A stretch of 64,000 bases of DNA from a virus (lineage: Duplodnaviria > Heunggongvirae > Uroviricota > Caudoviricetes), in IMG/VR virus record IMGVR_UViG_2690315748_000001, positions 60,652 through 124,651 of that record; one strand, given 5' to 3'. This document shows, piece after piece, positions 3,681-47,723 of this stretch. The notes under the pieces were generated by a model. It did not search any database, had not been told where the DNA came from, and worked only from the letters and a program-made list of their open reading frames with translations. A program made the translations under genes and the position numbers. Within the stretch, counting starts at the first letter, position 1, and each line of letters starts with the position of its first letter.

Positions 3681-3724
3681 GAGCCGAAGAAAGTATTGAC
3701 AGTGAGAGGGTTAACATCTATAAT
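3681..3724 (+). promoter_or_regulatory. Repeated motif copy (gagccgaagaaagtat) immediately followed by TTGACA(3696)-17 nt-TATAAT(3719) promoter upstream of Pnkp-like gene
   Basis: Read directly: gagccgaagaaagtaTTGACAgtgagagggttaacatcTATAAT. Confidence 0.6.
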
Positions 3725-3787
3725 GAGAATATAGATGTTAACCTTTTAATTATTTAAAAGAGTTTTAAACATACAAAACATTAGGAG

Positions 3788-6169
3788 ATGATTATTATTC
3801 GTAATTTGGTTCTTTTGCGTGGCGCAATGGGAGCAGGGAAATCATTTTTCATCAAAAAAAACAAGCTGGAACAGTTTGTACTGAGTGCAGATGCAATTCG
3901 CTTGCTTTTCCAAACGCCTGTAATGACTGAATCAGGCAAGTTTTCAATCAACTCAAGAAATGATGGGAAAGTGTGGAAGTTGTTGTTTGAACTTCTCGAA
4001 GAACGTATGAAACGTGGAGAGTTCACGATTATCGACGCTACACACGCTAAACAGGAAATGATTTCACAGTATAAGGATTTAGCACAGAAGTATCGTTATC
4101 GTGTTCATGTGGTTGATTTCTCTGACATTCCTCTGGAAACACTTTTGCTCCAGAACAGAATGAGAGACGAACACAAACATGTTCCTGAACATGTTATCAT
4201 GAATGTTCATGAACGTATGCAAACAGAGCATGTTCCAAAATGGGTTAATGTAATCAAGCCCGAAGAGTTTCATGATACAGTTCAGTTTGAACAAACGATT
4301 TACGAAAACTATGATTACATTCATCATTTTGGAGACATTCATGGAAGTTATGAAGCACTTATGGAGTACTTTGCGAAGACTGGACACGCTTTCTGCCAAG
4401 ATACAGGGTATCCGATTCTAAAGGAAAATGAACTGTATATCTTTGTAGGTGATATCACTGACAGAGGCACACAGAACGCAGAAGTATTAAATTTCTTTCT
4501 AAGTATCTACGCTCTTAAAAATGTTGTAATTCTCGAAGGAAATCATGAAATTCATTTATGGAACTGGGCGAATGACGAAGATGTTCGTAGCAAAGAGTTC
4601 ATCGACTTTACTCAACCACAACTTGAAAAGCCATTCAAGTATTTGATACCAGTTGATGTTGAATTTATTGATGAACTAGAAGAAAAATTGGATGAAGATA
4701 AATTGAAGGAATACAAGAAAGAAGTACGCCAATTCTATCGCAGACTTCGCCAAGTTGTTTGTTATAAGGCTCATGGTAAGGAAGTTGTTGTTACGCATGG
4801 TGGGCTTTCCAAAATGCCCGATAATCTTATGTATCTTGCCACAGAACAACTCATCAAAGGTGTAGGTGACTACGAGGTAGATATCGACAATGCTTGGGAC
4901 AACAATCTTCCATACATTTATGGTGAGTGCATTTACGCAACAGGTGGAGATGGGCTAAAAATTCCTTACGCTTTAGAAGTGTCAAAGAAAGTAGAGTTGT
5001 ATCAAATTCATGGTCATCGCAACATTTTCCGACTGCCTGTACAAGCAGGAAAGTACAGTTTTAACCTTGAAGGACAGGTTGAGTTCGGTGGTCATCTACG
5101 TGTGGTTGCATTAGATGCAGAGGGATTTCATGCGACAGAAGTAAAGAATAACAACTTCAAGATTCGCAAGGGTGTTGTTCCTAAACATATTGACGAGACA
5201 GATACGAGCATTGATCAGCTTATCGCATACATGTCTAATCATGAAATGATTGAAGAGAAGGACTTGGGTGGAAATATCTACTCATACAACTTTACTCGGA
5301 AGGCATTTAAGGATAAAGTTTGGGATGATATCAACGTGAAGGCAAGAGGTTTGTTTATTAACAAGAACACCAAAGAGATCGTTTCTCGATCATACAACAA
5401 GTTCTTCAATGTAAACGAACGCTCTTTCACGAAGATCAATGCGCTTGCCGACAATATGGTATTCCCTGTGCAAGTCTACGACAAACCGAACGGATACCTT
5501 GGAATTGTGGGATATGATTCTGAAAGCGATGAGCTAGTGTTTAGTTCGAAGTCGTCAACTGGTGGAGAATTTGCAGGATGGTTCAAAGAATTGTTTATCG
5601 GTCAGTTTGGAAGTGTTCTGGAAGCGATCAAACAAGAGTTAAAGGACGAAAATATCGCTCTGGTCTTTGAGGTAATCAAAGTGAAAGAAGACCCACACAT
5701 CATTGAATATGCAGAAGACAAATTGGTGCTACTTGATCTGGTGAAACGTACTGTGAAATATGAAAAACTTCCATATGATGATGTAGTTCAATTCGCAAGA
5801 TTCTATGGTTTAGAGCATAAAAATCTCATGCACACATTTGACAATTGGACTGACTTTTATATCTGGTATCGTGATGTGACAAATGACTTTAGTATTGATT
5901 ACAATGAAGGATTTGTTATTGAGGACTCTGCTGGATTCATGACAAAGATCAAGCTTCCTTTCTATAGTTTCTGGAAGCAATTTAGAAACATTAAGGATTT
6001 GTTTGCTAAACGTCACGAGCATACAGTAAAAGGTGGAAGTCTGTACACACCATTGCACAATAGAGTGTTCAAGTGGATGAAGGGTCAAGACCGTCAATGG
6101 TTGAAGAGAACTGATATCATTACTATTCGCAAGGCATACTTACAGGAGCAGTCCAAAGAACTGTTATAG
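3788..6169 (+). CDS. pnkp: Three-domain polynucleotide kinase / 2',3'-phosphoesterase / RNA-ligase-like nucleotidyltransferase (bacterial Pnkp-type RNA repair enzyme)
   Basis: N-term P-loop LRGAMGAGKSF (PNK-type kinase); central calcineurin-like metallophosphoesterase motifs GDIHG, GDITDRG, GNHE; C-term ligase-type motifs KARG (motif I, KxxG variant), EGFVIED (IV), MTKIKLP (V, KxK). Confidence 0.7.
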   Translation: MIIIRNLVLLRGAMGAGKSFFIKKNKLEQFVLSADAIRLLFQTPVMTESGKFSINSRNDGKVWKLLFELLEERMKRGEFTIIDATHAKQEMISQYKDLAQKYRYRVHVVDFSDIPLETLLLQNRMRDEHKHVPEHVIMNVHERMQTEHVPKWVNVIKPEEFHDTVQFEQTIYENYDYIHHFGDIHGSYEALMEYFAKTGHAFCQDTGYPILKENELYIFVGDITDRGTQNAEVLNFFLSIYALKNVVILEGNHEIHLWNWANDEDVRSKEFIDFTQPQLEKPFKYLIPVDVEFIDELEEKLDEDKLKEYKKEVRQFYRRLRQVVCYKAHGKEVVVTHGGLSKMPDNLMYLATEQLIKGVGDYEVDIDNAWDNNLPYIYGECIYATGGDGLKIPYALEVSKKVELYQIHGHRNIFRLPVQAGKYSFNLEGQVEFGGHLRVVALDAEGFHATEVKNNNFKIRKGVVPKHIDETDTSIDQLIAYMSNHEMIEEKDLGGNIYSYNFTRKAFKDKVWDDINVKARGLFINKNTKEIVSRSYNKFFNVNERSFTKINALADNMVFPVQVYDKPNGYLGIVGYDSESDELVFSSKSSTGGEFAGWFKELFIGQFGSVLEAIKQELKDENIALVFEVIKVKEDPHIIEYAEDKLVLLDLVKRTVKYEKLPYDDVVQFARFYGLEHKNLMHTFDNWTDFYIWYRDVTNDFSIDYNEGFVIEDSAGFMTKIKLPFYSFWKQFRNIKDLFAKRHEHTVKGGSLYTPLHNRVFKWMKGQDRQWLKRTDIITIRKAYLQEQSKELL

Positions 6170-6172
6170 CTA

Positions 6173-6190
6173 AGGAGCCGAAGAAAGTAT
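6173..6190 (+). repeat. Repeated motif copy aggagccgaagaaagtat
   Basis: Exact match to family consensus, intergenic downstream of 3788..6169. Confidence 0.7.
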
Positions 6191-6311
6191 TGATTAAAGT
6201 ATAATATTAAGATATAATGGATATAGAAAACATAAGCTGTGAAGAACAGCATCCTAACATGAGCGTGGTTGAGAGAAGATCGAGGTCATAGCAATCATTC
6301 ATTTAGGAGAG

Positions 6312-6899
6312 ATGTTCATGGCAATATTCTGTTTGATCGGTCAGTCTGCAAGTGGGAAGTCAACGGTGGAAAGGCAAATCGAATCATTGGGCTATCCAAG
6401 GATTATCTCATATACTACTCGCCCAATGCGCGAGAAAGAGAAAGATGGAGTCGATTATCACTTTATTAATTACCCCACTTTTACTGAACTGAACGAGTCT
6501 GGATTCTTTGCAGAGAGAGCGCAATACCGCGACTGGCATTATGGGTTGTCTCTGAAAGGTATCGACTACTTGAATAAGAATTACATTGTCGTTGTTACGA
6601 TCCATGGATACGAAGAACTTGTTCGTGTCGTTGGTCAAGAAAATGTAATTGGAATCCATATCAAGGCTGATGAACGAGAGAGAATGATTCGCCAGTTAAA
6701 TCGTGGTGATGATGTAGATGAAGTAATCAGACGCATCCACACCGACAGAGTTGATTTTGCAGGAGTAGAAGATATCTGTCAACATACTGTCGAGAATAGA
6801 CATTTCGATATGACAGTTGATGAAGTGATGGATATTATTTATTTCCAAGGAGCCGAAGAAAGTACTAAGGAGGACTGTTTATGGCTGAACGATATGTGA
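6312..6899 (+). CDS. Guanylate kinase-family nucleoside monophosphate kinase (probable dNMP kinase)
   Basis: P-loop GQSASGKST and TTRPMREKEKDGVDYHF, the guanylate kinase signature. Confidence 0.6.
   Translation: MFMAIFCLIGQSASGKSTVERQIESLGYPRIISYTTRPMREKEKDGVDYHFINYPTFTELNESGFFAERAQYRDWHYGLSLKGIDYLNKNYIVVVTIHGYEELVRVVGQENVIGIHIKADERERMIRQLNRGDDVDEVIRRIHTDRVDFAGVEDICQHTVENRHFDMTVDEVMDIIYFQGAEESTKEDCLWLNDM
6848..6866 (+). repeat. Repeated motif copy aggagccgaagaaagtact (no promoter hexamers; abuts RBS of 6881 gene, lies inside 3' end of 6312..6899)
   Basis: Exact match to family consensus. Confidence 0.7.
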
Positions 6900-11117: not shown

Positions 11118-11139
11118 CCCATGGTTCACTTCTTTTAAT

Positions 11140-11160
11140 GAGCCGAAGAAAGTACTATAA
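11140..11160 (+). repeat. Repeated motif copy gagccgaagaaagtactataat (with TATAAT but weak -35)
   Basis: Exact core; the track ORF start ATG 11138 lies inside this element. Confidence 0.7.
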
Positions 11161-11179
11161 TAATAGGGAGTTGTTGTAT

Positions 11180-13159: not shown

Positions 13160-13534
13160 TTGCTTATCCTTTTCTATTCTAAAACAGGGAATATAAGAAG
13201 ATTTTCAAACAAGCTTACTAAAAGAGGATTTGTTTGTAAAGACATTCTTGAGCATCCAAAAGTTGAAGAGGATTTTGTGCTAATCACGCCTACTCATGGA
13301 TTCGGGCAGATACCAGATGCAGTTCAGTTGTTTCTTAGAAACAATCTTGAACATCTGGTGGCTGTCGCTTCCAGTGGCAATAAGGTGTGGGGGAACGACT
13401 TGTTTGGGAAGAGTGGAGAAACAATTGCAGATGTGTACAATGTTCCCCTTTTACACAAGTTCCAGAGTCAAGGATTTGAATCAGATGTAGATATATTTAT
13501 TGAGAGGGTGTTGAGTCTTGGCAAAATGGATTGA
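13160..13534 (+). CDS. nrdI: NrdI flavodoxin-like protein
   Basis: TTG start; MLILFYSKTGNIRRF N-terminus and size typical of NrdI; immediately upstream of nrdE. Confidence 0.7.
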   Translation: MLILFYSKTGNIRRFSNKLTKRGFVCKDILEHPKVEEDFVLITPTHGFGQIPDAVQLFLRNNLEHLVAVASSGNKVWGNDLFGKSGETIADVYNVPLLHKFQSQGFESDVDIFIERVLSLGKMD

Positions 13535-15647
13535 GTACAATAATGAGGTAAAAATAGCCAAGGATGGCTTGTATCAGTTCGAAAAGGATAAAGAAGCTGT
13601 TAAGGATTACATGGTCAATCATGTAAATCAAAACATGGTATTCTTCCACGATCTTCGTGAGAAAATCAATTACATGATCGAAAACGATTATTATGACGCA
13701 AATCTGTTTGACATGTATACATTCAAGCAAATTAAATCAGTATTTAATAAAGCGTATAGCTTCAAGTTCCGATTCCCATCTTTTATGAGTGCATTCAAGT
13801 TTTATAACAACTATGCGCTCAAGACAGACGATCAGACTAAATTCCTCGAAAGATACGAAGATCGTGTCGCAGTATCTGCGCTTTACTTCGGTAAACTCTA
13901 CGCAAACTCTGACAATCAAGATGATATGTATCAAGAAGCATTGCGTCAGGTTGTTAATATGATGGAGCAAAACTATCAACCAGCAACGCCTACATTCTTG
14001 AATGCTGGAATCAGTAGAGGTGGAGAGAAGGTTTCCTGCTTCCTTTTGAGTACGCCTGATTCTACAGAAGGCATTAACTATGTGAATAATGCTGCATCTC
14101 AATTAAGTCGTCGTGGTGGCGGCGTAGGTATAAACCTTACTAGACTTCGTGCCATTGGTGAACCTATCAATGGTACGGAAGGCGTGTCTGGTGGGGTAGT
14201 TGGGGTAGCCAAACAGCTAGAAGAGCAGTTTAGTTATTTCAATCAGAATGGTAAGCGTGATGGTTCTGGCGTTGCGTATCTAAGCATCTTCCATGCAGAT
14301 ATTAATCGTTTCCTTGATACAAAGAAAGTAAATGCTGATGAAAAGATCAGACTCAAAACTCTCTCTATTGGTATCATTGCACCTAATAAATTCTTTGACT
14401 TAGCTATTGAGGGGAAACCATACTTTGTTTTCTATCCTCACAATGTCTATAAAGAGTATGGCATTGAATTGAATGATATGGATATGGATGAATGGTATGA
14501 CAAACTCGTTAGCAATCATAATATCCGAAAAGATAAGTTAGACCCTCGACAAATGCTAAATAAAGTAGCACAGATTCAACAACAGTCTGGATATCCATAC
14601 TGGATGTTCATCGACAATGCTAATGATGTGCATGTACTTAAAGATATTGGTCGAATCGAAATGTCTAACCTTTGCAACGAAATCTACCAATTATCCAAAC
14701 AAAGTAACATTTCCAAGAATATGTACGATGGAACAAGTGAATGGGGCTACGATGTGTCTTGTAATCTTGGCTCTCTGAACATCGTAAATGTAATGGAAAA
14801 CAAGAAAATCAAAGAAGCTGTTCATCTGGCTGTCAATGCTCTGAATGTTGTTGTGGATGATACAAATATTGAATCAGTTCCTACAGTAGCAAATGGTAAC
14901 AAGAACGTTCGTTCTCTTGGTTTGGGAGTCATGAACCTTCACGGATACTATGCAAAAAACAGCATCTTCTATGACAGTAAAGAAGCGAAAGACTTCGCCA
15001 ACACATTTATGATGAGTGTGAGATTCTATGCTATTCAACGGTCGATGGAGATCGCCAGAGATATGGGTACTGTATTCACAGACTTTGATAAGTCTGAGTA
15101 CGCAAAAGGAAAAGAAGGAAACTTGTTCCCTAAATACTTGAACAATAATTACTCTCCACGAACTGATAAGGTGAAAAAATTGTTTGAGGGAATTTATATT
15201 CCCAATCAATTAGACTGGGAATATTTGATGGAAGATGTTCAGAAGTATGGCATGGCAAATGCATATCTTTTGGCAATCGCTCCTACAGGAAGCATTTCAT
15301 ATATTCAGTCTGCTACTGCTTCGATTTCTCCAATCACTGAGCAAATTGAGACAAGAACTTATGGTGATAGCGTAACTCATTACCCTATGCCTTACATGAC
15401 AAATGACAATATGTTCTTCTATACACCAGCCTATGAGATCGACATGTTTAAGTACATTGATCTGGTGGCAACGATTCAAGAGCATGTATGTCAAGGCATT
15501 TCAACAACGCTGTTCGTTGATAGCAATAAGACAACAGAAGACCTTGCAATGTACTATGTATACGCAAATAAAAAAGGACTGAAAGGTTTGTACTATACGA
15601 GAACAAAGCTTTTGAGCGTAGATGATTGCGTTAGCTGTTCAGTGTAA
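13518..15647 (+). CDS. nrdE: Ribonucleotide reductase class Ib alpha subunit
   Basis: 709 aa; no ATP cone; C-terminal Cys pair CVSCSV; followed by nrdF; uninterrupted (no intron/intein). Confidence 0.85.
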   Translation: MAKWIEYNNEVKIAKDGLYQFEKDKEAVKDYMVNHVNQNMVFFHDLREKINYMIENDYYDANLFDMYTFKQIKSVFNKAYSFKFRFPSFMSAFKFYNNYALKTDDQTKFLERYEDRVAVSALYFGKLYANSDNQDDMYQEALRQVVNMMEQNYQPATPTFLNAGISRGGEKVSCFLLSTPDSTEGINYVNNAASQLSRRGGGVGINLTRLRAIGEPINGTEGVSGGVVGVAKQLEEQFSYFNQNGKRDGSGVAYLSIFHADINRFLDTKKVNADEKIRLKTLSIGIIAPNKFFDLAIEGKPYFVFYPHNVYKEYGIELNDMDMDEWYDKLVSNHNIRKDKLDPRQMLNKVAQIQQQSGYPYWMFIDNANDVHVLKDIGRIEMSNLCNEIYQLSKQSNISKNMYDGTSEWGYDVSCNLGSLNIVNVMENKKIKEAVHLAVNALNVVVDDTNIESVPTVANGNKNVRSLGLGVMNLHGYYAKNSIFYDSKEAKDFANTFMMSVRFYAIQRSMEIARDMGTVFTDFDKSEYAKGKEGNLFPKYLNNNYSPRTDKVKKLFEGIYIPNQLDWEYLMEDVQKYGMANAYLLAIAPTGSISYIQSATASISPITEQIETRTYGDSVTHYPMPYMTNDNMFFYTPAYEIDMFKYIDLVATIQEHVCQGISTTLFVDSNKTTEDLAMYYVYANKKGLKGLYYTRTKLLSVDDCVSCSV

Positions 15648-15699
15648 TGAGTGAGGGGCTTTGCCCCTCAATACTTAAAATAAGGAGAGGTTTAAAAAT

Positions 15700-16695
15700 A
15701 TGACTACATTCCAAGCTGTAAACTGGAATACACCAGAGGATGACTTTACCCTAACGTTTTACGAGCAGAACTTGAAGCAATTTTGGATTGATACTGAGTT
15801 CGTTCCAAGTAAGGATATCAAGGCGTGGGGCAAACTTTCAGACGCAGAAAGGGAAACGTATCGCAAAGTTTTAGGTGGTCTGACTTTGCTGGACACCGAA
15901 CAGAATGGTGTTGGTATGCCGCAAATTTTGGATCACGTTGATGGTTTGCAACGTAAGACTGTTCTTTCATTTATGTCTATGATGGAAGGTATTCACGCTA
16001 AGTCGTACAGCACAATATTTACTACACTAGATTCGAGCGAACAAATTAATGAAGTTTTTGAGTGGGTATCTGAGAATAAGTACCTACAGAAGAAGTTGAA
16101 CATTATTGATGGATACTACAGAAACATTGACTCTCCTAAAAAATTGTATATGGCTATGGTTGCGAGTGTTTTCCTTGAATCCTTCTTATTTTATAGCGGA
16201 TTTTTCTATCCACTGTATCTAGCTGGTCAAGGCAAGATGGTAGCCAGTGGAGAGATTATTAACCTAATTATTCGAGACGAAGCGGTGCATGGCTTGTATG
16301 TTGGGCTACTCGCACAAGAGGTTTATAACAATCTCTCTATTGAAGAGCAAAATGAAATAGAATTTGAAGTCTATGCACTTCTAAGAGAACTGATGGCGAA
16401 TGAAGATTTATATACAGAAGAGATTTACGCTGACATTAACCTTGATGCTGATGTTAAATCATTTCTTCGCTTCAATGCTAATAATGCCTTGATGAACCTT
16501 GGTAGAGAAGCCTTCTATGAAGAGAATGATGTGAATCCAATTGTACTTAATGGTCTTAGTACACAAACCAAAACGTTTGACTTCTTTAGTAATAAGGGGA
16601 ATGGATATCAAAAAGGTAAAGTTGCACCTATCACTGATACTACATTCGCTCATGTGTTTAAAATGCTTGAAAAATCGGAGGATGATAATTTATGA
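15700..16695 (+). CDS. nrdF: Ribonucleotide reductase class Ib beta subunit
   Basis: 331 aa ferritin-like; iron-ligand motifs EGIHAKSY ... RDEAVHG. Confidence 0.85.
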   Translation: MTTFQAVNWNTPEDDFTLTFYEQNLKQFWIDTEFVPSKDIKAWGKLSDAERETYRKVLGGLTLLDTEQNGVGMPQILDHVDGLQRKTVLSFMSMMEGIHAKSYSTIFTTLDSSEQINEVFEWVSENKYLQKKLNIIDGYYRNIDSPKKLYMAMVASVFLESFLFYSGFFYPLYLAGQGKMVASGEIINLIIRDEAVHGLYVGLLAQEVYNNLSIEEQNEIEFEVYALLRELMANEDLYTEEIYADINLDADVKSFLRFNANNALMNLGREAFYEENDVNPIVLNGLSTQTKTFDFFSNKGNGYQKGKVAPITDTTFAHVFKMLEKSEDDNL

Positions 16696-16946
16696 AGATT
16701 GTTAAGTTTGTACAGCCAACTTGCCAACCGTGTCGTATGGTGGATGGGTTTCTGAGTCACTTAGGATTGAAGGTAGATGAAACGATGGATATCGTAGTTG
16801 ATGATAAAGCGTTTGAGTTAGCTACAAGTTTTGGAGTTCGTAGCACTCCAACTCTCATCCTGTTGGACGATGAAGGCAATGAAGTAGATCGTGTTTCTGG
16901 TATGAATCACGAAGGGATTAAGAGATTATTCGAATTGCGTGGTTAA
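16692..16946 (+). CDS. nrdH: NrdH-like glutaredoxin/thioredoxin-fold redoxin
   Basis: CQPC redox motif near N-terminus, 84 aa, adjacent to nrdEF. Confidence 0.6.
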   Translation: MKIVKFVQPTCQPCRMVDGFLSHLGLKVDETMDIVVDDKAFELATSFGVRSTPTLILLDDEGNEVDRVSGMNHEGIKRLFELRG

Positions 16947-16993
16947 AACTTTGTGGCTATGGAGACATAGCCACAATATTCTGGAAGGGGAAT

Positions 16994-18832
16994 GTGAAAA
17001 TGGTCACAGAGAAAAGTTTGATGGAGAAATTTGATGAAATCGTGAGTAGTAACAACAAAGATTTAATTCAAGAAAATGCAAATACAGATGGTATGAGTCC
17101 AATGGGGATGATGTCACTGTTTGCATCAACATCTGCAAAAACATTTGCAGTTGAAAAGCTTCTATCCGAAGAAGCGAGAAATGCTTATCTTGAAGGTTAC
17201 ATTCACATACACGATCTTGATTTCTATGCAACAGGAACTACAACATGTTGTCAAATCCCTCTTGGCAAGCTGCTGAGAAATGGCTTTGATACTGGTCATG
17301 GACATATGAGGGAGCCGAATAACATTATGAGTGCGATGGCATTGACTTCAATTATTCTACAAGCAAATCAAAACCAACAACATGGTGGTCAATCCATTCC
17401 GATGTTTGACTATGACTTGGCTCCATATGTAGAGAAAACATATCAAAAGTGTTTAGAGATGTTGAAGTCTATCGGATTGGTTAATGATATAGAAGAAAAG
17501 GCTTGGAATCTGACTGATAAGCAAGTATATCAAGCCTGTGAAGCATTTGTTCATAATAGTAATTCTATGCATAGTAGGGGCGGTTCTCAAACTCCATTTA
17601 TATCAATTAACCTTGGAACAGATACCTCAAAAGAAGGACGCATGATTACAAAAAATCTCTTGCTTGCAACACAGGCAGGGTTGGGCGATGGAGAAACACC
17701 GATCTTCCCGATCACTGTATTCAAGGTTAAAGATGGAGTTAATTTCAATCCTGACGATCCTAATTACGATTTGTATCAGCTATCACTTGAAACTACATCC
17801 AAACGTTTATTCCCAAACTATGTTTTTATTGATGCGCCTTTTAACCTTCAATATTACAATGGAACACCAGAAAGCGAGATTGCTACGATGGGCTGTAGAA
17901 CAAGAACTATTAGCAATGTTAATGGAGACGAAACCCCTGTCGGAAGAGGGAACCTTTCATTTACATCTATCAATCTTCCTCTATTAGCTATTGAGTCAAG
18001 AGATATTGATGACTTCTTTTTTAAGCTAAATAAATATGTTGATATTAGTATTAAACAGTTATTTGACCGCTATTTATATCAGGCTAGTAAGAGTGTTGCT
18101 AACTTTAAGTTCCTATATAGTCAAGGAATCTGGTCTAATGGAGAGGAACTAGATTCAAACGATAAGCTAGGTGACATTCTCAAGCAAGGAACATTATCTG
18201 TTGGATTCGTAGGCTTGGCAGAAGCACTTGTTGCACTTATTGGAGAGCATCATGGGGAGAGCGAAGAAGCTTGGGAACTTGGGTATAGTATCATTAAATT
18301 TATTCGAGATAAAACAGATGTTGCTACACGAAAATACAATATGAATGTAACAACACTTGCTACCCCCGCTGAATCGTTTGCTGGTAAAGCACTTAAAACC
18401 ACAAGAGAAAAGCATGGAGTCATACAAGGTGTTACAGACAGAGAGTATTTCACAAATGGTTTTCACATCCCTGTGTACTATAAGATCGGTGCATTTAATA
18501 AAATTAAAAAAGAAGCTCCATTTCATAATCTAACTAATGCTGGACATATCACCTACATTGAGCTTGATGGCAATGCTTCCAACAATGTAAAAGCGTTAGA
18601 TGCAATTGTTCGTGCAATGAAGGAGAATGGAATTGGATACGGAAGTATAAATCATCCCGTAGATCGCTGTTTGGACTGCAAACATCAAGGTATCATTAAT
18701 GAAGAATGTCCTAAGTGCGAAAGTAAAAAGATTGAACGCATTCGTAGGATTACAGGATATCTTGTTGGTAGTATGGATAAATGGAACTCAGCCAAACGTG
18801 CGGAAGAAAGAGAACGGGTTAAACACTCATAA
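16994..18832 (+). CDS. nrdD: Anaerobic (class III) ribonucleotide reductase
   Basis: IHIHDLD ... TCCQ N-terminal signature, C-terminal Zn ribbon CLDCKHQ ... CPKCES and glycyl-radical motif RRITGY. Confidence 0.8.
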   Translation: MKMVTEKSLMEKFDEIVSSNNKDLIQENANTDGMSPMGMMSLFASTSAKTFAVEKLLSEEARNAYLEGYIHIHDLDFYATGTTTCCQIPLGKLLRNGFDTGHGHMREPNNIMSAMALTSIILQANQNQQHGGQSIPMFDYDLAPYVEKTYQKCLEMLKSIGLVNDIEEKAWNLTDKQVYQACEAFVHNSNSMHSRGGSQTPFISINLGTDTSKEGRMITKNLLLATQAGLGDGETPIFPITVFKVKDGVNFNPDDPNYDLYQLSLETTSKRLFPNYVFIDAPFNLQYYNGTPESEIATMGCRTRTISNVNGDETPVGRGNLSFTSINLPLLAIESRDIDDFFFKLNKYVDISIKQLFDRYLYQASKSVANFKFLYSQGIWSNGEELDSNDKLGDILKQGTLSVGFVGLAEALVALIGEHHGESEEAWELGYSIIKFIRDKTDVATRKYNMNVTTLATPAESFAGKALKTTREKHGVIQGVTDREYFTNGFHIPVYYKIGAFNKIKKEAPFHNLTNAGHITYIELDGNASNNVKALDAIVRAMKENGIGYGSINHPVDRCLDCKHQGIINEECPKCESKKIERIRRITGYLVGSMDKWNSAKRAEERERVKHS

Positions 18833-19339: not shown

Positions 19340-19948
19340 ATGAAGGATATGAATTTTTTTAATCCGTTCACCTATTCTGATAAAGAGCGATGGAAAGACA
19401 TAGAGAAGCAAATGATATTTGAAGCGTGGGTTCCATTTGTATCGAACCGTCCGCTTCAATTTTTTGTGCCTTACCCGAAAAGTGAGGAAGAGGAAGAATC
19501 ACCATTACATACAGGAATTACAAAAGGACACCTTACGAGCATCATCGGTGATGATTCAACATCAAGCACTCATAATGTTGTTAGCACTTTAAAAAGAAGA
19601 AAAGTAGTCGTTCTATCGAGGGACAGCGTGTGCAAAAACGACTATATGCCTGAAATAATAGTGGCAAGGATTTTCTCTATTAAAGATAAACATAGAGAAG
19701 CGCGTTGGTATCCTGATTTGGTGAGTGGAAATCATGAGTGGTTTGTTCATTTGCCAAAACACATTACAGGGAAAGAGTCATATGTTAATATGACGCAAAC
19801 TATGCCAATTGGTAAGAACCTACTGATAGAAAAGTATGGTTTGTTAGATGGAGAACTTATGAAAATGGTAGAAGCAAGATATAAGCATGGGATTGATCTT
19901 GGAGTCATTAAGGAAACAAACGATGGCTTTATGGCATCTAGCGAATAG
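19340..19948 (+). CDS. hypothetical protein (202 aa)
   Basis: ORF with RBS gaaaggaac; no motif recognised. Confidence 0.45.
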   Translation: MKDMNFFNPFTYSDKERWKDIEKQMIFEAWVPFVSNRPLQFFVPYPKSEEEEESPLHTGITKGHLTSIIGDDSTSSTHNVVSTLKRRKVVVLSRDSVCKNDYMPEIIVARIFSIKDKHREARWYPDLVSGNHEWFVHLPKHITGKESYVNMTQTMPIGKNLLIEKYGLLDGELMKMVEARYKHGIDLGVIKETNDGFMASSE

Positions 19949-20034
19949 GAAAGGACAATTGTCCTTTCCTATTTTTTGTTTAGAGTAGACGGTAATCTCG
20001 TTTTCTTTCTTTTTAGGGAGATAATAATAAGTTG

Positions 20035-20064
20035 TTGACAAGGAGCCGAAGAAAGTACTATAAT
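20035..20064 (+). promoter_or_regulatory. Consensus promoter TTGACA-17-TATAAT whose spacer is the repeated motif AGGAGCCGAAGAAAGTA
   Basis: ttgacaaggagccgaagaaagtactataat read directly. Confidence 0.7.
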
Positions 20065-20302: not shown

Positions 20303-21073
20303 ATGATAATTGAGAGAAGTATACTTGTGAAGGCACTGGTTGGCTCACATAACTACAATCTTGCAACGCCAGAGTCAGACAAAGACTACAAGATATTCAC
20401 CATGCCAACGTTCGATGATCTTTACAGAGGTAAAATGTACTCGAAGGCAGATGTTGGATTAGAGTTCGATTTCGATGTGCATGACATTAGGAAAATGGTT
20501 GCTCTGTTCTGGAAAGCAAACATCAACTTCCTTGAAGTCCTCTACTCGAAAGAAAATCACATCTATGATAAAAACATTAAAGAAATATACAATCTGCGGA
20601 AAGATATAGTGAGAATGAATCTACCTTACTTATACAATGCATGTAGAGGAATGCACTTCGAAAAGATGAAGCGTCTGGATAACCCAACAGAAGGAACAGC
20701 ACACTTGATTGAGAAGTATGGCTATAATACCAAAGAAGCATTACATGCTTACAGGGTTCTCGATTTTATTACTCGATTTGCATATACAGACTTCGAGGAT
20801 TTCGAATGGGCAATGACTTACGATGAAAACCTTAGAGAAAGAATGCTTGAAATCAAAAATGGAGAATACCCAAAAGTAACGTTCCAAATGTTGATTCGTC
20901 AAAAGATGAGTCAATTCGAAAAGTTTGACCAAGCATACTATAGTCAAAAGCCCAATGAAGAATTAAAACAGCACATTGATTTAATTATATACAATATGAT
21001 TAAGGAAAATTTTCAAGGAACTAAAGAAAGTACTTTGGGAGGAAATGAAGATGCTCAAACAATTACGCAGTAA
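20303..21073 (+). CDS. Polymerase-beta-superfamily minimal nucleotidyltransferase-domain protein
   Basis: GSHNYNLATPESDKDY matches the hG[GS]x9-13Dh[DE]h NTase signature; 256 aa. Confidence 0.4.
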   Translation: MIIERSILVKALVGSHNYNLATPESDKDYKIFTMPTFDDLYRGKMYSKADVGLEFDFDVHDIRKMVALFWKANINFLEVLYSKENHIYDKNIKEIYNLRKDIVRMNLPYLYNACRGMHFEKMKRLDNPTEGTAHLIEKYGYNTKEALHAYRVLDFITRFAYTDFEDFEWAMTYDENLRERMLEIKNGEYPKVTFQMLIRQKMSQFEKFDQAYYSQKPNEELKQHIDLIIYNMIKENFQGTKESTLGGNEDAQTITQ

Positions 21074-22466
21074 CCCAATTATGTTGACTGACGCATACAA
21101 CTTGTCGCACCAAAACTTGAAGGTTAATACAGATTGGGAAATATCCCATATGTACAATCGTTCCAAGTCAATGATTCTGTTCGGACTTCTTGAAATTATT
21201 AACAACATCTTGGAGACACGAATCAACATGTCAATGATTGACGAAGCTGAATTTCATGCAAATCGTATGGGAATTACATTCCCTAGAAAACTTTGGGAGC
21301 GAGTAGTCAAGGAATGTGGTGGTTATATTCCCTTGGAGATACAAGCTCTACCAGAAGGTACGTACTGCCCTGTAGGAACACCTTTCGCTCAAATTCGTAA
21401 CACAGTTAAGGGTTTTGGTGAAATGGTTACATGGTTCGAGGGCGAATTGATGCACGCTTATTTCCCATCAACCGCTGCTACACAAGCACTTCGTATGCGG
21501 CGTTATCTGGAACAAAAGAAGCGTCAATATGGTTATGATGACAGTTTTATGCTTCGTTTGCACAGCTTTGGATTTCGAGGTCATCGCAGCCTTGAAGACG
21601 CATATTGGGCAGGGATTTCGTGGAATTTATTCTTGTATGGTACAGACGACTTCCACACAGCATTTCACACTCCAAGTGCGAATCTCGTAAGTATCGCAGC
21701 TACTGCACACAAGGTAACACAGCAATTTGACAATGAGTATGAGGGTTATAGACATGTGATCAAGGCAACAGCAGATGTAGGGGAGAAGATCGTAGCAATC
21801 GTAATTGACACATATGATGCATATCGTTTCCTTGATGAATACTTAATTCCATTGGCTAAATACGCCGCATCGCTTGGAGTTCATATGGTAATTCGTCCAG
21901 ACAGTGGCGACACATGGGAACAGGTTGTGATTGCATACAAGAACATTTCTCGTCACTTCATTCCGATCACGAATGTTACTGCTATCATTGGTGAAAGCAT
22001 GGACTTTGAAAATGTGAAAAAGGCAGATGCTTATTTTGAGCAACATGGCGTTCCATTGAACTTCGTATCATATGGAGTTGGTGGAGGATTCTACAACTAT
22101 GCAAATCGAGATACGCTTGGATGGGCAATGAAAACAGCTTACTCTAATGGTAAAGATCGCATGAAATTCTCTGAGAATCCAATCAAACGTAGTATTCCTG
22201 GGGTTGTTGAACTTTATCGCAATGAATATGGTGATTTAGTTGTAGGCAAAGAGAATAGTGTCAAAGAAGGAAAACTCTACGAGACGATCTACTTCCATGA
22301 TGCTGTAGCTGATACGCCGATCATGAAGCAATATTCCGATGAACATTGGTTGTCTGTTCAGGCGACAGCTCTTTCGGCAAACACAGAGCAAGCAAATATC
22401 TATCTCAGCGATGAAGTTCGTACAGAGATTGGCGAGTTCCAAAGACGATACAGAAATCGGGTGTAA
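21051..22466 (+). CDS. nadV: Nicotinamide phosphoribosyltransferase (NadV/Nampt)
   Basis: NPIMLTDAYNLSH N-terminus, FGFRGHRS, IRPDSGD motifs of the type II PRTase/NadV family; start 21051 preferred over 21045 for RBS spacing. Confidence 0.75.
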   Translation: MLKQLRSNPIMLTDAYNLSHQNLKVNTDWEISHMYNRSKSMILFGLLEIINNILETRINMSMIDEAEFHANRMGITFPRKLWERVVKECGGYIPLEIQALPEGTYCPVGTPFAQIRNTVKGFGEMVTWFEGELMHAYFPSTAATQALRMRRYLEQKKRQYGYDDSFMLRLHSFGFRGHRSLEDAYWAGISWNLFLYGTDDFHTAFHTPSANLVSIAATAHKVTQQFDNEYEGYRHVIKATADVGEKIVAIVIDTYDAYRFLDEYLIPLAKYAASLGVHMVIRPDSGDTWEQVVIAYKNISRHFIPITNVTAIIGESMDFENVKKADAYFEQHGVPLNFVSYGVGGGFYNYANRDTLGWAMKTAYSNGKDRMKFSENPIKRSIPGVVELYRNEYGDLVVGKENSVKEGKLYETIYFHDAVADTPIMKQYSDEHWLSVQATALSANTEQANIYLSDEVRTEIGEFQRRYRNRV

Positions 22467-29862: not shown

Positions 29863-29882
29863 AGGAGCCGAAGAAAGTACTA
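29863..29882 (+). repeat. Repeated motif copy aggagccgaagaaagtacta (second copy 80 bp after the first, upstream of dUTPase)
   Basis: Exact consensus. Confidence 0.7.
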
Positions 29883-30646: not shown

Positions 30647-30684
30647 AGGAGCTAAAGAAAGTACTAACGGGGAGTTCGCTCCCC
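30647..30684 (+). repeat. Variant motif copy aggagctaaagaaagtacta followed by GGGGAG-ttcg-CTCCCC hairpin
   Basis: Read directly after dUTPase stop. Confidence 0.55.
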
Positions 30685-30714
30685 TTAAATTATGCTTATG
30701 AGGTGAAACAACGA

Positions 30715-33718: not shown

Positions 33719-34246
33719 ATGAAGGAAGTAATCGCAATAACAGCAATGGACGAAAATAATGCAATTGGCAAGGACAACAAACTACTTTGCACTCTAAAAG
33801 ACGACATGGAATACTTTCGATCAGTGACCGAGGGACACATTGTTGTCATGGGAAGGAACACATATCGGAGTATTGGCAGACCTTTGCCGAACAGGATCAA
33901 TATAATCCTGACCAAAGATAAAAACTTTCCTATTCCTAAATGCCTTGGATGTAGAGTCATGCATTCAGTGAGCGAAGTGTTAAGCTTTCATAGCAATCTG
34001 AACAACGATAAAGATATGTTCATTATAGGTGGAGAACAGGTATACGAGTCGTTTCTGCCATACTGCAACAAGCTTATCGTGAGTCATATACTGGCATCTT
34101 TCGATGACGTTGATGCACACTTTCCAGAGGTAGACTGGACAAAATGGGAGCCTATAGGTCATCCATTAGGTGAAGAAGGATGGGTTTCTGCCGATGATCG
34201 GAATGAATATGCATTCAGTACAGTTATATATAGGAAGACCGTCTAA
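33719..34246 (+). CDS. folA: Dihydrofolate reductase
   Basis: VIAITAMDENNAIGKDNKLLC ... MGRNTYRSIG ... typical DHFR. Confidence 0.8.
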   Translation: MKEVIAITAMDENNAIGKDNKLLCTLKDDMEYFRSVTEGHIVVMGRNTYRSIGRPLPNRINIILTKDKNFPIPKCLGCRVMHSVSEVLSFHSNLNNDKDMFIIGGEQVYESFLPYCNKLIVSHILASFDDVDAHFPEVDWTKWEPIGHPLGEEGWVSADDRNEYAFSTVIYRKTV

Positions 34247-34272
34247 CAGGGGAGTAATCCCCTGTTTTTTAT
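34246..34272 (+). terminator. Rho-independent terminator
   Basis: caggggagtaatcccctg + TTTTTT. Confidence 0.75.
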
Positions 34273-34293: not shown

Positions 34294-34323
34294 TTGACAA
34301 GGAACCGAAGAAAGTACTATAAT
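34294..34323 (+). promoter_or_regulatory. Consensus promoter TTGACA-17-TATAAT with repeated-motif spacer
   Basis: ttgacaaggaaccgaagaaagtactataat. Confidence 0.7.
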
Positions 34324-34361: not shown

Positions 34362-35042
34362 TTGGGCAAAACGAGAGAGCGGCGTTATGCAAAACCGATA
34401 GGCGAATATGAGAAACAATTTAATATACATATTCGCGAGATGATAGAAATGATTAAGCACGAACGAGTGAAAACCAATTTGTATGTAAAAGCAGTAAAGT
34501 TGTCAGCCCACGCTTTTGCGCGAATGGAAGAACACTTTGATATTTCTAATCTTGCTACAGCAACAAAGCTGGCGAAAGATATGTTGAAACACGCTGTTCG
34601 AATTGGCACAGTGTTGTCCTACGATGGTCGTATCAATGTCTTGTATGCTTATCGACAAACAGCATTCTTCCTGTCTCCTGACTTGAAGACAGTAGTAACA
34701 GTCAACAAGTTTCAAAAAGTTTCTTACAAACCATTCATGAAGATCGCCAAAGAGGGTGCAGATCGTGACACATTGCTTGAAATGCACTTTAACCTTCTCC
34801 GTGAGATCGAACAGAAAGAAGAAGATCAAATTCGTCTGATTCTTTCAATTGAACAGAAGGTAAGAGAAGCGAATGAACAATGTACTACAATGTTGAAACT
34901 GATCAAAGGTGGAGGACGCAAGAGAAGCATCAAGCAACTCATATCCGAACAGAACCATCAATTAAAGATGGAAGGTCGTAAACTGTTTGATTTAAAAATT
35001 AAGAAACGTCATTTGTGTAAGTCTATTGTTTCCTTACATTAA
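34362..35042 (+). CDS. hypothetical protein (226 aa, TTG start)
   Basis: ORF with GGGGGCAACTAAG leader. Confidence 0.45.
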   Translation: MGKTRERRYAKPIGEYEKQFNIHIREMIEMIKHERVKTNLYVKAVKLSAHAFARMEEHFDISNLATATKLAKDMLKHAVRIGTVLSYDGRINVLYAYRQTAFFLSPDLKTVVTVNKFQKVSYKPFMKIAKEGADRDTLLEMHFNLLREIEQKEEDQIRLILSIEQKVREANEQCTTMLKLIKGGGRKRSIKQLISEQNHQLKMEGRKLFDLKIKKRHLCKSIVSLH

Positions 35043-35061
35043 GGAGCCGAAGAAAGTACTA
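35042..35061 (+). repeat. Repeated motif copy aggagccgaagaaagtacta abutting RBS
   Basis: Exact consensus; no promoter hexamers. Confidence 0.7.
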
Positions 35062-36535: not shown

Positions 36536-36811
36536 ATGAGTAAACAAATGGCGAAAAAAGAAATACTCAATCTATACTCTTTGATGATAATGATTTCCGT
36601 TAGCAAGAATGGTGAATCTGTTATCGAAGCGACTGGATTTACAGAAGAAAACATGGATAAAATGATGCGTGTTCTCGTGAGTTCGTTCGATGAAGATGAA
36701 GTAAAGGCAAATAAGTATATTGTCAAAGAAGTAAATAAGCTTTTGAAAAAGCTTGATGATCATGAAGTGTCAGAGAACCAAAGAAAGTACTTTCCAAAAG
36801 GAGATAAATAA
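36536..36811 (+). CDS. hypothetical protein
   Basis: ORF. Confidence 0.4.
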   Translation: MSKQMAKKEILNLYSLMIMISVSKNGESVIEATGFTEENMDKMMRVLVSSFDEDEVKANKYIVKEVNKLLKKLDDHEVSENQRKYFPKGDK

Positions 36812-38089: not shown

Positions 38090-38671
38090 ATGGCGAAATT
38101 GATATTTAGGTATGGCTCCATGAATGCCAGCAAATCTGCAAACCTTATCATGGACTGGTATGGTCATAAAGCTAATGGTAAAAGTGTTTTAACCTTCAAG
38201 TCCACCTTGGATGCTAGAGATTATGGCTACATAACATCCAGAGCAATCGAAACAAAGATTCCAGCGAGTCTTATTGCTCCTGATATGGATGGTGTGATGT
38301 TCAATATGACAGAGACATTCATGCCGAGAATGGTTTTCATTGATGAGGTTCAATTCCTGACTGCCAAACAGATCGAGGAACTATCTGCGATTGTTGACAA
38401 GCTTGGCGTAACTGTACAGGCATATGGGTTAATGACAGACTTCAAACGCGAACTATTTGAAGGTAGTAAAAGGCTTGTAGAACTAGCTGACGTTGTAGAG
38501 CGTATTCGATCTGAATGCACTGAATGTTCTAATGAAGGGCTAATGAATGCTCGATTCATAGACGGTGTGTTGCAATCAGAGGGGCAGACGGTAATGATTG
38601 GTGCAGAGCAAACATATAAGGTTCTTTGTCGGAGTTGTTATGCGAAATCAATAGAAAGGCTAACCGTCTAA
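38090..38671 (+). CDS. tdk: Thymidine kinase
   Basis: P-loop YGSMNASKS; C-terminal zinc motif CTEC ... CRSC; GAGGTG RBS before ATG 38090. Confidence 0.8.
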   Translation: MAKLIFRYGSMNASKSANLIMDWYGHKANGKSVLTFKSTLDARDYGYITSRAIETKIPASLIAPDMDGVMFNMTETFMPRMVFIDEVQFLTAKQIEELSAIVDKLGVTVQAYGLMTDFKRELFEGSKRLVELADVVERIRSECTECSNEGLMNARFIDGVLQSEGQTVMIGAEQTYKVLCRSCYAKSIERLTV

Positions 38672-38700
38672 GGAGAGATAAAGTGTCTCTCCTTTTCTTA
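38671..38700 (+). terminator. Rho-independent terminator
   Basis: aggagaga-taaagtg-tctctcct + TTTTCTT. Confidence 0.7.
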
Positions 38701-38708
38701 TTAAAACA

Positions 38709-38738
38709 TTGACAAGGAGCCGAAGAAAGTACTATAAT
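38709..38738 (+). promoter_or_regulatory. Consensus promoter TTGACA-17-TATAAT with repeated-motif spacer
   Basis: ttgacaaggagccgaagaaagtactataat. Confidence 0.7.
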
Positions 38739-40461: not shown

Positions 40462-40638
40462 ATGAAGCCAAACGATATTGTTTATGTTTTGTATCAGGAT
40501 ATGTGGGGTGGGTACAGAGACTATTACACAGATCATGCAACAGAAGCAGAAGCACGTAAGGCACAACGAAAACATCCGAACAACGTATCTCTCATTATCA
40601 TGACCAAGGAAGAGTATGACAATTTAGAGGATTTCTAA
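40462..40638 (+). CDS. hypothetical protein
   Basis: ATG 40462 after tggaggtaataag. Confidence 0.4.
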   Translation: MKPNDIVYVLYQDMWGGYRDYYTDHATEAEARKAQRKHPNNVSLIIMTKEEYDNLEDF

Positions 40639-40656
40639 GGAGCGGAAGAAAGTATT
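40638..40656 (+). repeat. Variant motif copy aggagcggaagaaagtat
   Basis: One substitution (G for C). Confidence 0.6.
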
Positions 40657-40680
40657 GATATGTAGAGGTGAAAAAATGAA

Positions 40681-41620: not shown

Positions 41621-41638
41621 AGGTGCTAAAGAAAGTAC
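41621..41638 (+). repeat. Variant motif copy aggtgctaaagaaagtac
   Basis: Degenerate. Confidence 0.5.
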
Positions 41639-41651
41639 AAGGAGTGATAAT

Positions 41652-46974: not shown

Positions 46975-47218
46975 AGCTAACGAAAGACTGTTCGAGGATT
47001 GGATGAGGGTTTCAGCAAGCCCTCATTCCAAACTTGGATTACATGGTGCTTGGATTGTCCAGAACGACATGGAACTGACTGGACAAGAATTGAACGACTG
47101 GTATAAGGAAACTGGTCGCCTAATAGAAACGACAGAAGAACACTTTGAACAAGTGATAAGCGACATGAAAGCACTTCGCGAACGATCTGTGAAATACATT
47201 AAACAATTAAATAAATAA
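46934..47218 (+). CDS. hypothetical protein
   Basis: ORF. Confidence 0.35.
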   Translation: MSWGFTMSKKYSIKANERLFEDWMRVSASPHSKLGLHGAWIVQNDMELTGQELNDWYKETGRLIETTEEHFEQVISDMKALRERSVKYIKQLNK

Positions 47219-47230
47219 TTAGGAGATGAT

Positions 47231-47413
47231 TTGATGCATCATTATTTTATCTACTACAAAGGTAAAAAGAATGGAGAAGTTTTTGATGGTATGGCTGGAT
47301 TTGATTTGGAATATCCTATCGCTACCTTTGGCGACATTCAAGCTATCTCAGAAAAGATAACCGAAGAGACTGACACTGACAATGTTATTATTTCTAATTT
47401 TATCAAATTGTAA
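47231..47413 (+). CDS. hypothetical protein
   Basis: RBS aggagatg. Confidence 0.4.
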   Translation: MMHHYFIYYKGKKNGEVFDGMAGFDLEYPIATFGDIQAISEKITEETDTDNVIISNFIKL

Positions 47414-47427
47414 TGGAGATGATTTTA

Positions 47428-47694
47428 ATGAACGAAATCAAACGAGGGCAAATGGTAAAAGTGGTTGACACAGGAGAGACTTACAGCACTTACACAGATA
47501 TGTTTAATCATATGAGAGCAAAACTCGGATTTGCAGACTTCACACATGCGCGTGGACTCCAACCAGAAAAAGATAAAGTATATATGGTGCTTGCTGTCGA
47601 AAAACACTTTAATAATAACGATTCAGTGGCATTGATTCACAATGACAACCAAAAAGGCTACCTGATTTCAATTGATGGACTTGAATTAATTTAA
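47428..47694 (+). CDS. hypothetical protein
   Basis: ATG 47428 after tggagatg. Confidence 0.4.
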   Translation: MNEIKRGQMVKVVDTGETYSTYTDMFNHMRAKLGFADFTHARGLQPEKDKVYMVLAVEKHFNNNDSVALIHNDNQKGYLISIDGLELI

Positions 47695-47700
47695 GCTTTA

Positions 47701-47723
47701 CCTCCTAGTACTTTCTTGGCTTC
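47701..47723 (-). repeat. Repeated motif copy in inverted orientation (minus strand reads gaagccaagaaagtactaggagg)
   Basis: Only minus-strand copy of the family seen in the window. Confidence 0.55.

Follow-up and report, generated by a model that had tools for sequence, protein, structure and literature searches.

Introduction

MrpR is a protein of tyrosine-recombinase fold that has lost recombination and now works as a transcription factor, and to our knowledge it has so far been known only with the repeated element SPBRE in phage SPbeta. In phage P1, the C1 repressor has ~17 to 20 asymmetric 17-bp operators, ATTGCTCTAATAAATTT, dispersed over a plasmid prophage, and the promoters of T7-type single-subunit RNA polymerases are contiguous conserved blocks of ~20 nt that stand in one orientation before genes. 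SPBRE (SPbeta repeated element) is the target of MrpR/YopR, the master repressor of the Bacillus phage SPbeta (Lazarevic 1999; Kohm et al. 2023, PMC10516654); MrpR binding was demonstrated by ChAP-seq and EMSA, and promoter repression was shown in SPbeta (PMC10516654). The SPBRE sequence used here, AAATACAAAWAATATGTATA, was derived from ten peak promoters, the MEME motif of the ChAP-seq peaks being 15 bp. Brevibacillus phages Jenst and SecTim467 carry a repeated promoter-like motif (Berg et al. 2016, PMC4909266), which the same paper states was not found in phage Sundance.

The DNA analyzed here, a stretch of 64 kb referred to as the window, comes from a new phage related to Brevibacillus phage Sundance and to pPAV141, a phage-plasmid of Paenibacillus alvei. 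Window and Sundance are syntenic, with 50 to 83% amino acid identity, and replication and nucleotide-metabolism genes of SPbeta are also present in the window. An earlier note on this DNA had described a repeated 20-nt element and proposed it as a repressor operator, with SPBRE as a possible parallel.

Results

The repeated element is real. The 20-mer AGGAGCCGAAGAAAGTACTA occurs 14 times in the 64-kb window with three or fewer mismatches, against 0 expected from 100 shuffles, and a weight-matrix (PWM) scan returns 19 copies above 12 bits, where the null maximum is 9.3 bits. Thirteen of the 14 are on the plus strand, starting at 3679, 6173, 6848, 11138, 20041, 24466, 29781, 29863, 30647, 34300, 35042, 38715, and 40638; the fourteenth, on the minus strand at 59970-59989, was missing from the earlier list, the copies of which were otherwise confirmed. 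The PWM scan adds those at 21016, 36773, 22475, 41621, and 2251, and two degenerate copies, one of them at 28241, lie beyond these 19. A 14-nt core, GCYRAAKAAAGTAY, is found 21 times with at most one mismatch (0.35 expected). The copy placed earlier near 47701 is inverted, as reported, but proves to be a variant with a one-base deletion at 47706-47725 on the minus strand; the intergenic region, 72 nt long, also has a degenerate forward copy, at ~47735-47749, which it faces. The window version of the element opens with a Shine-Dalgarno-like AGGAG.

Placement is not random, and the intergenic setting first described is borne out: none of the 20 good copies lies deep in a gene interior (P ~5e-12), all are at gene boundaries, and every copy has the orientation of its neighboring genes. 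The element, at ~20 copies per 64 kb, is a multi-copy, phage-restricted sequence of ~15 to 20 bp, far above chance, that is repeated among early genes, is found in the intergenic stretches where early and regulatory genes have their promoters, overlaps sigma-A promoters, and is co-oriented with transcription. We distinguish copies that form the spacer between -35 and -10 (class A), copies that overlap the -35 from upstream (class B), and promoter-less copies shortly before start codons (class C). Promoter scores reach at least the 99th percentile of background in 6 of 20 copies, and a recognizable promoter is absent in about half.

Only four sigma-A promoters in the window match the consensus at 12 of 12 positions, and all four have the element in exact register. 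The earlier note had made the element the 17-nt spacer of these promoters; all four are indeed perfect, but the spacer is 18 nt in three of them (20035, 34294, and 38709; TTGACA-AGGAGCCGAAGAAAGTAC-TATAAT), and at 3696, the sole perfect promoter with a 17-nt spacer, the element lies upstream and shares its TTG with the -35. The element core is written GAAGAAAGTAC in the three spacer-embedded promoters. All copies described below are on the plus strand unless stated otherwise. The exact-consensus copy at 20041-20060 occupies the 18-nt spacer of the promoter at 20035-20064, with a terminator at 19943-19974 just upstream; the copy at 34300-34319 does the same in the promoter at 34294-34323 (terminator at 34245-34266), as does that at 38715-38734 in the promoter at 38709-38738 (terminator at 38670-38694). 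The orthologous junction of the 34300 copy has a copy of the same class in Sundance, L043, and L042. Two further class A copies have weak -35 hexamers: one at 11138-11157, within TTTTAA-17-TATAAT at 11133-11161 and upstream of a RecJ-like gene, and the minus-strand copy at 59970-59989, within TTTAAG-17-TATAAT and 22 nt upstream of an endolysin-like gene (59003-59947, minus strand). An intrinsic terminator is found 15 to 60 nt upstream of each class A copy. These copies are essentially untranscribed DNA. Those embedded in spacers have an intrinsic terminator on one side and the transcription start on the other, which means that their action must be at the DNA level.

The weak -35 hexamers at 11138 and 59989 have the look of activator-dependent promoters, which bears on a second explanation, that the element is the DNA site of some other phage-encoded protein, be it a different repressor or a factor (an activator, or one that appropriates sigma) redirecting the host polymerase at early or middle promoters in the manner of the T4 MotA box. 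We consider this doubtful. The three best copies belong to promoters with a full sigma-A match, which need no activator, and in class C copies a -10 is lacking, as is the space for one ahead of the ribosome-binding site.

Being asymmetric, unbroken over ~20 nt, and set ahead of genes in their own orientation, the element could also be a promoter of the T7 kind, read by an RNA polymerase or unusual sigma factor of the phage's own, and the hairpin that follows some copies could then be a 5' stem-loop. This seems highly improbable, as T7-type promoters and the element differ in several respects. Perfect host -35 and -10 hexamers enclose the element, an exact fit that recurs in four phages, and the late-gene arm of the window is almost free of it in the PWM scan. 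Among 17 window proteins scanned, which are part of the proteome (a count that leaves aside Sundance gp013, scanned alongside), none showed an RNA polymerase or sigma domain, and no YonO homologue was detected. The analog SPBRE, moreover, is a repressor site (PMC10516654).

Class B copies abut or enter the -35. The 3' TTG of the copy at 3679-3698 starts the -35 of the perfect promoter at 3696-3724 (N17), with a Pnkp/RNA-ligase gene downstream; the copy at 6173-6192 overlaps the -35 of a promoter at 6190-6218 (TTGATT-17-TATAAT), and a class B copy is present at the orthologous site of Sundance. The copy at 29781-29800 overlaps the -35 of TTGACT-17-TAAGAT (29798-29826) and is the first of a pair spaced by 82 bp, the second of which, a class C copy at 29863-29882, ends 18 nt before the start codon of a dUTPase-like gene. 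The spacing of this pair is kept at 80 to 82 bp in four phages. Between classes B and C is the copy at 40638-40657, which ends in TTG and has a start codon 23 nt on.

Class C copies lie 10 to 23 nt ahead of start codons, with seven to eight copies ending at that distance. They include the copy at 6848-6867, which is within the last codons of a guanylate kinase gene, 9 nt after a 10/12 promoter at 6810-6838 and 13 nt before the next start codon; the copy at 21016-21035 (28.8 bits), followed after 15 nt by an NAMPT-like gene; the exact-consensus copy at 35042-35061 (start codon 16 nt on); those at 36773-36792 (20.4 bits, 21 nt) and 41621-41640 (16.2 bits, 11 nt); and the degenerate copy at 28241-28260, with a DNA ligase gene starting 10 nt on and a likewise degenerate counterpart at this junction in Sundance. 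Two promoter-less copies are located between a stop codon and a hairpin. At 24466-24485 the stop codon is immediately 5' and a hairpin without a T-run follows; at 30647-30666 it is the dUTPase stop codon that is immediately 5', with a GGGGAG/CTCCCC hairpin thereafter, an arrangement kept in Sundance, L043, and L042. Weak copies at 22475-22494 (16.8 bits, 5' end of a coding region) and 2251-2270 (12.7 bits, intergenic) are of uncertain status.

Such positions invite the reading that the element, at least in its promoter-less copies, acts in RNA as a cleavage or processing site, a stabilizer, or a translation signal 5' of the ribosome-binding site. Every copy is on the sense strand, and this strict co-orientation would fit an RNA-level signal as well as a phage polymerase promoter. 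The distance of seven to eight copies from their start codons, the AGGAG start in the window, and the hairpin without a T-run after the element downstream of the dUTPase gene in four phages also speak for it. We nevertheless judge it very unlikely, and RNA processing, raised earlier as the alternative to an operator, is not supported as a general account. Class A copies are outside mRNA, the element has no match in Rfam at the gathering threshold, and the mean folding energy downstream equals random background in four phages, with no enrichment of structure. AGGAG is not kept in relatives, which have AAAGCC or GATGCC there, and SPBRE, the known analog, is bound as DNA (PMC10516654).

Comparison with relatives points to a DNA-binding protein encoded by the phages themselves. 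In Sundance (~30 copies), pPAV141 (L043/L049), and L042, the element recurs at matching gene junctions with its class retained, in concerted lineage-specific variants, GGA-GCCGAAGAAAGTAC, AAA-GCYAAATAAAGTAC, and GAT-GCYAAAGAAAGTAC, which vary at core position 7 (G or T) and in the flanks (GGA, AAA, or GAT). Concerted variants of this kind are predicted by co-evolution with a phage-encoded reader, an argument that draws on a few lineages and would suit a protein other than MrpR as well.

A candidate is nonetheless apparent. By the family definition used here (Pfam PF22822 plus PF22823), Sundance gp157 is an MrpR protein, passing MrpR_N_CB with 82.6 bits and MrpR_C_cat with 50.1 bits, and homologues 52 to 57% identical are found in pPAV141 and four other Paenibacillus loci. 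AAAKAAAGTAC-type elements lie within ~2 kb of the gp157-like gene in four of the five loci, the exception being P. xylaniclasticus, and in relatives of the window phage the MrpR-family gene adjoins that phage's own element variant. No MrpR-like gene or other obvious cognate repressor is present in the 64-kb window; by synteny, the MrpR gene of the window phage would lie upstream, a few kb beyond window position 1. A reader other than MrpR could be sought among further DNA-binding candidates in the window, an AbrB/MazE-HTH protein (53828-54313) and a weak TetR-like HTH (48654-49526). It is also compatible with a second repeat family, GTGTGWTTTT-N12-TTACATTAATATA, just upstream of the MrpR gene in Sundance, which could equally be the MrpR target there. 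That family is absent from the pPAV141 flank covered here (L049, which extends to ~5.7 kb upstream of its MrpR gene), and across lineages MrpR is the sole factor seen to co-occur with the element.

Discussion

On balance, we think it reasonably probable that the element is the operator array of a phage-encoded master repressor, most likely of the MrpR family, the gene for which would be outside the window. The earlier proposal of a repressor that shuts many early promoters is supported in part, by the SPBRE-like placements, by the spacer-embedded copies that must act as DNA, and by the MrpR genes beside the element in relatives, with the repressor gene itself lacking from the window. What the sequences show is the element with its statistics, placement, and conservation, and its company with MrpR genes in relatives; that a protein binds it, that this protein is MrpR, and that class C copies act as roadblocks as described below is what we infer.

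During lysogeny, with the phage probably in plasmid-like form, ~20 asymmetric sites, each oriented as transcription runs, would be filled by the repressor. At class A copies, repressor on the 18-nt spacer would exclude the host sigma-A RNA polymerase, and at class B copies repressor lying over the -35 from upstream would likewise do so. The two copies 82 bp apart, one on each side of the dUTPase promoter, might act together or form a loop. At class C copies, repressor bound 10 to 23 nt before start codons may block read-through transcription. A bolder and rather unlikely extension is that the promoter-less copies are not classical operators at all, and serve instead as polar roadblocks at nearly every operon junction or are read a second time in mRNA, in processing or translation. 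In the roadblock version, a recombinase-derived repressor coating approximately one site per 3 kb would silence a 130-kb plasmid prophage, a mechanism undescribed for SPbeta; if either version is true, the element would amount to a silencing code of dual use that spans the genome and evolves in step with the protein reading it.

Under the operator reading, the design of one repressor with a repeated operator would reach a distant clade, the large Brevibacillus and Paenibacillus phage-plasmids, including the window phage, Sundance, pPAV141, and other Paenibacillus elements. The operator words of each lineage would then provide a natural specificity-swap series on how a recombinase fold reads DNA. 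The element may also allow annotation of the early regulon and offer strong, tightly repressible promoters for honeybee-associated Firmicutes.

Among other known systems, the C1 operators of P1 are alike in working mode, in that one repressor serves many oriented, asymmetric operators spread over a large plasmid-type prophage and overlapping many operon promoters. The likeness is not one of membership, as repressor fold and sequence are unrelated and P1 is a phage of Gram-negative bacteria. The motif of Jenst and SecTim467 is similar in being repeated, intergenic, and upstream of DNA-metabolism genes in Brevibacillus phages, and a Sundance-type element is unreported in that paper (PMC4909266).

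SPBRE remains the closest parallel, and the likeness suggested in the earlier note holds for layout but not for sequence. The two consensus sequences, AAATACAAAWAATATGTATA and AGGAGCCGAAGAAAGTACTA, are different, with only a loose AAATAA...GTA resemblance, and the SPbeta genome has no window-type copies at four or fewer mismatches. The spacer is 18 nt in the window whereas it is 17 for SPBRE, the promoter-less share of copies is larger in the window, and density is higher (~20 copies in 64 kb, and ~30 in Sundance, against ~13 in 134 kb of SPbeta). SPbeta is a Bacillus phage, whereas the window phage is of a kind with Brevibacillus and Paenibacillus hosts and a prophage that is probably plasmid-borne; Pfam-verified MrpR is found in its relatives and not within the 64 kb themselves. 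Yet both elements are multi-copy and asymmetric, measure ~15 to 20 bp, occur in the phage alone, and run in the direction of transcription, and both take the same three placements, in the sigma-A spacer, against the -35, and just 5' of the ribosome-binding site. Both have paired copies (64/68 bp apart in SPbeta, 82 bp in the window), both serve genes of replication, nucleotide metabolism, and regulation, and a replication module is common to the two phages. Judged from these sequence comparisons, the element is most likely the SPBRE/MrpR switch of SPbeta in a new sequence form.

Results

The window carries a repeated 20-mer, AGGAGCCGAAGAAAGTACTA (the element, of which GAAGAAAGTAC is a part), with 14 copies at ≤3 mismatches compared to 0 in 100 dinucleotide-preserving shuffles. 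Thirteen are on the plus strand and one, at 59970-59989, is on the minus strand; the latter was overlooked in an earlier note, whose description of a repeat array is otherwise borne out. Scanning the window with a weight matrix built from these 14 copies gave 19 sites above 12 bits, against a top null score of 9.3, with sites added at starts 21016, 36773, 22475, 41621, and 2251; a degenerate copy lies at 28241. The 14-nt core, GCYRAAKAAAGTAY, occurs 21 times with ≤1 mismatch against 0.35 expected. By our own approximate gene calls, no good copy lies >60 nt inside a gene, a depth that applies to 73% of the window (P about 5e-12), and element copies are all co-directed with adjacent genes. Just upstream of a RusA-like gene (47695-47766), an inverted copy with one base deleted (47706-47725, minus strand) faces a degenerate forward copy at ~47735-47749; the same junction in Brevibacillus phage Sundance (NC_028749) has one forward copy only. 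No IMG/VR or GTDB genome contains the exact 19-mer, and an 18-mer has three matches in metagenomes, all unrelated single copies.

A 12/12 match to TTGACA/TATAAT is seen at only four sigma-A-type promoters of the window, and the element is present in all of them. At 20035, 34294, and 38709 it forms the spacer, as had been proposed, with a length of 18 nt rather than the 17 nt claimed. The promoter at 3696 has a 17-nt spacer; here the element precedes the -35 and overlaps it by TTG. Copies fall into four placement classes. The element forms the promoter spacer in class A (20041, 34300, and 38715, with weak -35 hexamers at 11138 and, on the minus strand, 59989) and overlaps the -35 from upstream in class B (3679, 6173, 29781, and probably 40638). 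Class C copies are 10-23 nt 5' of a start codon without a convincing promoter (6848, 21016, 28241, 29863, 35042, 36773, and 41621), and class D copies come just 3' of a stop codon and precede a hairpin that lacks a T-run (24466 and 30647). Because intrinsic terminators (19943-19974, 34245-34266, and 38670-38694) lie 15-60 nt upstream of the three perfect class A promoters, these copies are essentially untranscribed and must act as DNA.

Action at the RNA level, which the earlier note had offered as a processing site, is not supported in general, though it may apply to class C and D copies: there is no Rfam match, sequence 3' of the element shows no excess of structure, and relatives do not keep AGGAG. 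The last point also led us to reject a decoy Shine-Dalgarno or STAB-SD role, and a general tie of the element to RNA hairpins was likewise rejected. No Rfam families or tRNAs were found. That the element is a promoter for a phage polymerase is unlikely, as host hexamers frame it exactly and no polymerase or sigma candidate was detected among the proteins scanned. The Spo0A box is TGNCGAA; a resemblance to it in GCCGAA was dismissed, since relatives have GCCAAA or GCTAAA.

No GenBank phage is a near match to the window. The best distant match is Sundance (70%), syntenic with the window across the equivalent of its 57-110 kb, with proteins 50-83% identical. The window and SPbeta have in common a helicase, YorJ, a RecJ-like protein, YorM, NrdIEF, thioredoxin, and DNA polymerase (20-59% identity). 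Synteny with Sundance and the genes shared with SPbeta together assign the window, as a new member, to a Sundance-like branch within the wider SPbeta-like group. Two Sundance-like phage genomes with MrpR (YopR; the SPbeta master repressor), Sak4, and the element array are the 141-kb Paenibacillus alvei DSM 29 plasmid pPAV141 (L089/L043/L049, NZ_AMBZ01000022.1; IMG/VR contig 2827179085) and a 140.9-kb P. agilis contig (L090). ParA is also encoded by Sundance. The evidence suggests that the Sundance-like clade lysogenises as a plasmid.

Sundance has ~30 copies of AAAGCYAAATAAAGTAY, of the element-type AGCYAAATAAAGTAC family, in the same placement classes as the window; the pPAV141 word is GATGCYAAAGAAAGTAY, and a further relative, contig L042, has a GCCAAAKAAAGTA variant. 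For ten window copies, Sundance carries a counterpart between the corresponding orthologous genes, usually of matching class. Among these, the two copies on either side of the dUTPase promoter are 80-82 bp apart in each of the four phages. The dUTPase stop codon is immediately followed by the element and then by a GC-rich hairpin without a T-run (window 30647-30686, Sundance 86563, L043:9017, and L042:8806), an arrangement kept in 4/4 phages that promoter occlusion does not explain.

Copies are homogeneous inside each phage and differ in concert between lineages. Core position 7 is G in 20/21 window copies, T in 28/29 from Sundance, and G in 23/24 from pPAV141; position 4 is G in 13/21, A in 28/29, and A in 23/24, respectively; and the 5' flanks are GGA, AAA, and GAT. 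Such lineage-wise variants are the pattern that co-evolution with a phage-encoded reader predicts, and they argue against a conserved host factor in that role.

A candidate reader is the MrpR family. Aligned over its entire length, Sundance gp157 shares 28% identity with MrpR/YopR (E = 5e-25), and it passes both Pfam models, scoring 82.6 bits for MrpR_N_CB and 50.1 bits for MrpR_C_cat (cut-off 27 each). A search for close MrpR relatives with gp157 alone returned only Sundance itself. The pPAV141 homologue is 56% identical to gp157, with the first element copies ~2 kb downstream of its gene. Homologues at four more Paenibacillus loci are 52-57% identical, and AAAKAAAGTAC-type words lie within ~2 kb of the gene in three of the four; none was seen near the homologue at the P. 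xylaniclasticus locus. No MrpR homologue is encoded in the 64-kb window; synteny predicts that the gene is located upstream of position 1. The reader could instead be some other DNA-binding protein of the phage. Immediately 5' of its MrpR gene, Sundance has ~17 copies of a two-block repeat, GCGTGTGWTTTT-N12-TTACATTAATATA (also written GCGTGTGWTTTT-N12-TTACATTAATATATGAAG; 121.6-134 kb of NC_028749, minus strand, plus the terminal repeat; L007:275-8130). This repeat, unrelated to the element, precedes small genes and resembles a separate class of promoter; neither the window nor the pPAV141 flank, examined to ~5.7 kb upstream of the MrpR gene, contains it. In Sundance, MrpR may target either the element family or the TTACATTAATATA family.

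One window gene (3788-6169, plus strand), which lacks a homologue in Sundance or SPbeta, encodes a 793-aa fusion of polynucleotide kinase (AAA_33), metallophosphatase, and T4-type RNA ligase 1 that looks like an enzyme for RNA repair. Driving it is the perfect promoter at 3696-3724, whose -10 and start region lie within an 18-pair inverted repeat (3705-3747) that might serve as a second operator or form a 5' stem-loop. At 54596-56014 (plus strand), a 472-aa protein that weakly matches TPR is overlapped by a 38-aa ORF with a signal-peptide-like N terminus, MLKKVAFLIIATSFLLFVTVPVQLHSQVIHLNDQIGGS (55977-56093, plus strand), a layout as in Rap-Phr or AimR-AimP type quorum-sensing pairs; the 472-aa protein has no similarity to SPbeta AimR by BLASTP. 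The regulator encoded at 53828-54313 (plus strand) combines an AbrB/MazE-type N-terminal domain with a C-terminal helix-turn-helix, and the product of 19340-19948 (plus strand) gives a weak PemK/MazF-like match; the two recall reported connections of MazEF to lysogeny control in SPbeta and phi3T. The window also encodes a NAD-salvage cluster (NAMPT-like, cytidylyltransferase/NMNAT-like, and NUDIX) and ribonucleotide reductases of both kinds, aerobic NrdI/E/F plus thioredoxin and anaerobic NrdD (21045-24113 and 13160-18832, plus strand); NAMPT and NrdD had no match in the protein comparison with Sundance.

Discussion

From the anatomy of the element and its comparative pattern, we infer that, in the lysogen, the element sites are occupied by an MrpR-type master repressor. 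Bound at sites of classes A and B, it would exclude host polymerase; within the 82-bp pair, the two sites may cooperate. Sites of classes C and D would serve as roadblocks to read-through transcription.

In SPbeta, MrpR ChAP-seq peaks lie at ten promoters sharing a 15-bp motif, SPBRE, with binding confirmed by EMSA (PMC10516654). We derived the SPBRE word from those ten promoter regions, extracted from SPbeta. The word common to them, AAATACAAAWAATATGTATA, differs from that of the window, which is absent from SPbeta, and identity of the element with SPBRE is rejected. By BLASTP, homologues of YonO, YonP, YopS, and AimR were found in neither the window nor Sundance. The Sundance genome paper does not report the element, and the MrpR papers deal with SPbeta only.

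The likeness to SPBRE raised in the earlier note is one of architecture, not of sequence. SPBRE is the 17-nt spacer of TAGACA...TATAAT promoters at yorE, yorZ, yosX, and yonP; it lies just upstream of the -35 at aimR and in the first yonX copy, and immediately 5' of the ribosome-binding site at yopM, yopV, and in the second yonX copy. SPBRE is always oriented with transcription and includes two pairs, at spacings of 64 and 68 bp. The window shares this architecture of spacer, near -35, and pre-ribosome-binding-site placement, co-orientation, and pairing, whereas its array is denser than that of SPbeta, with many promoter-less copies. The element is probably a new sequence version of an already described type of system and occurs in a new phage clade.
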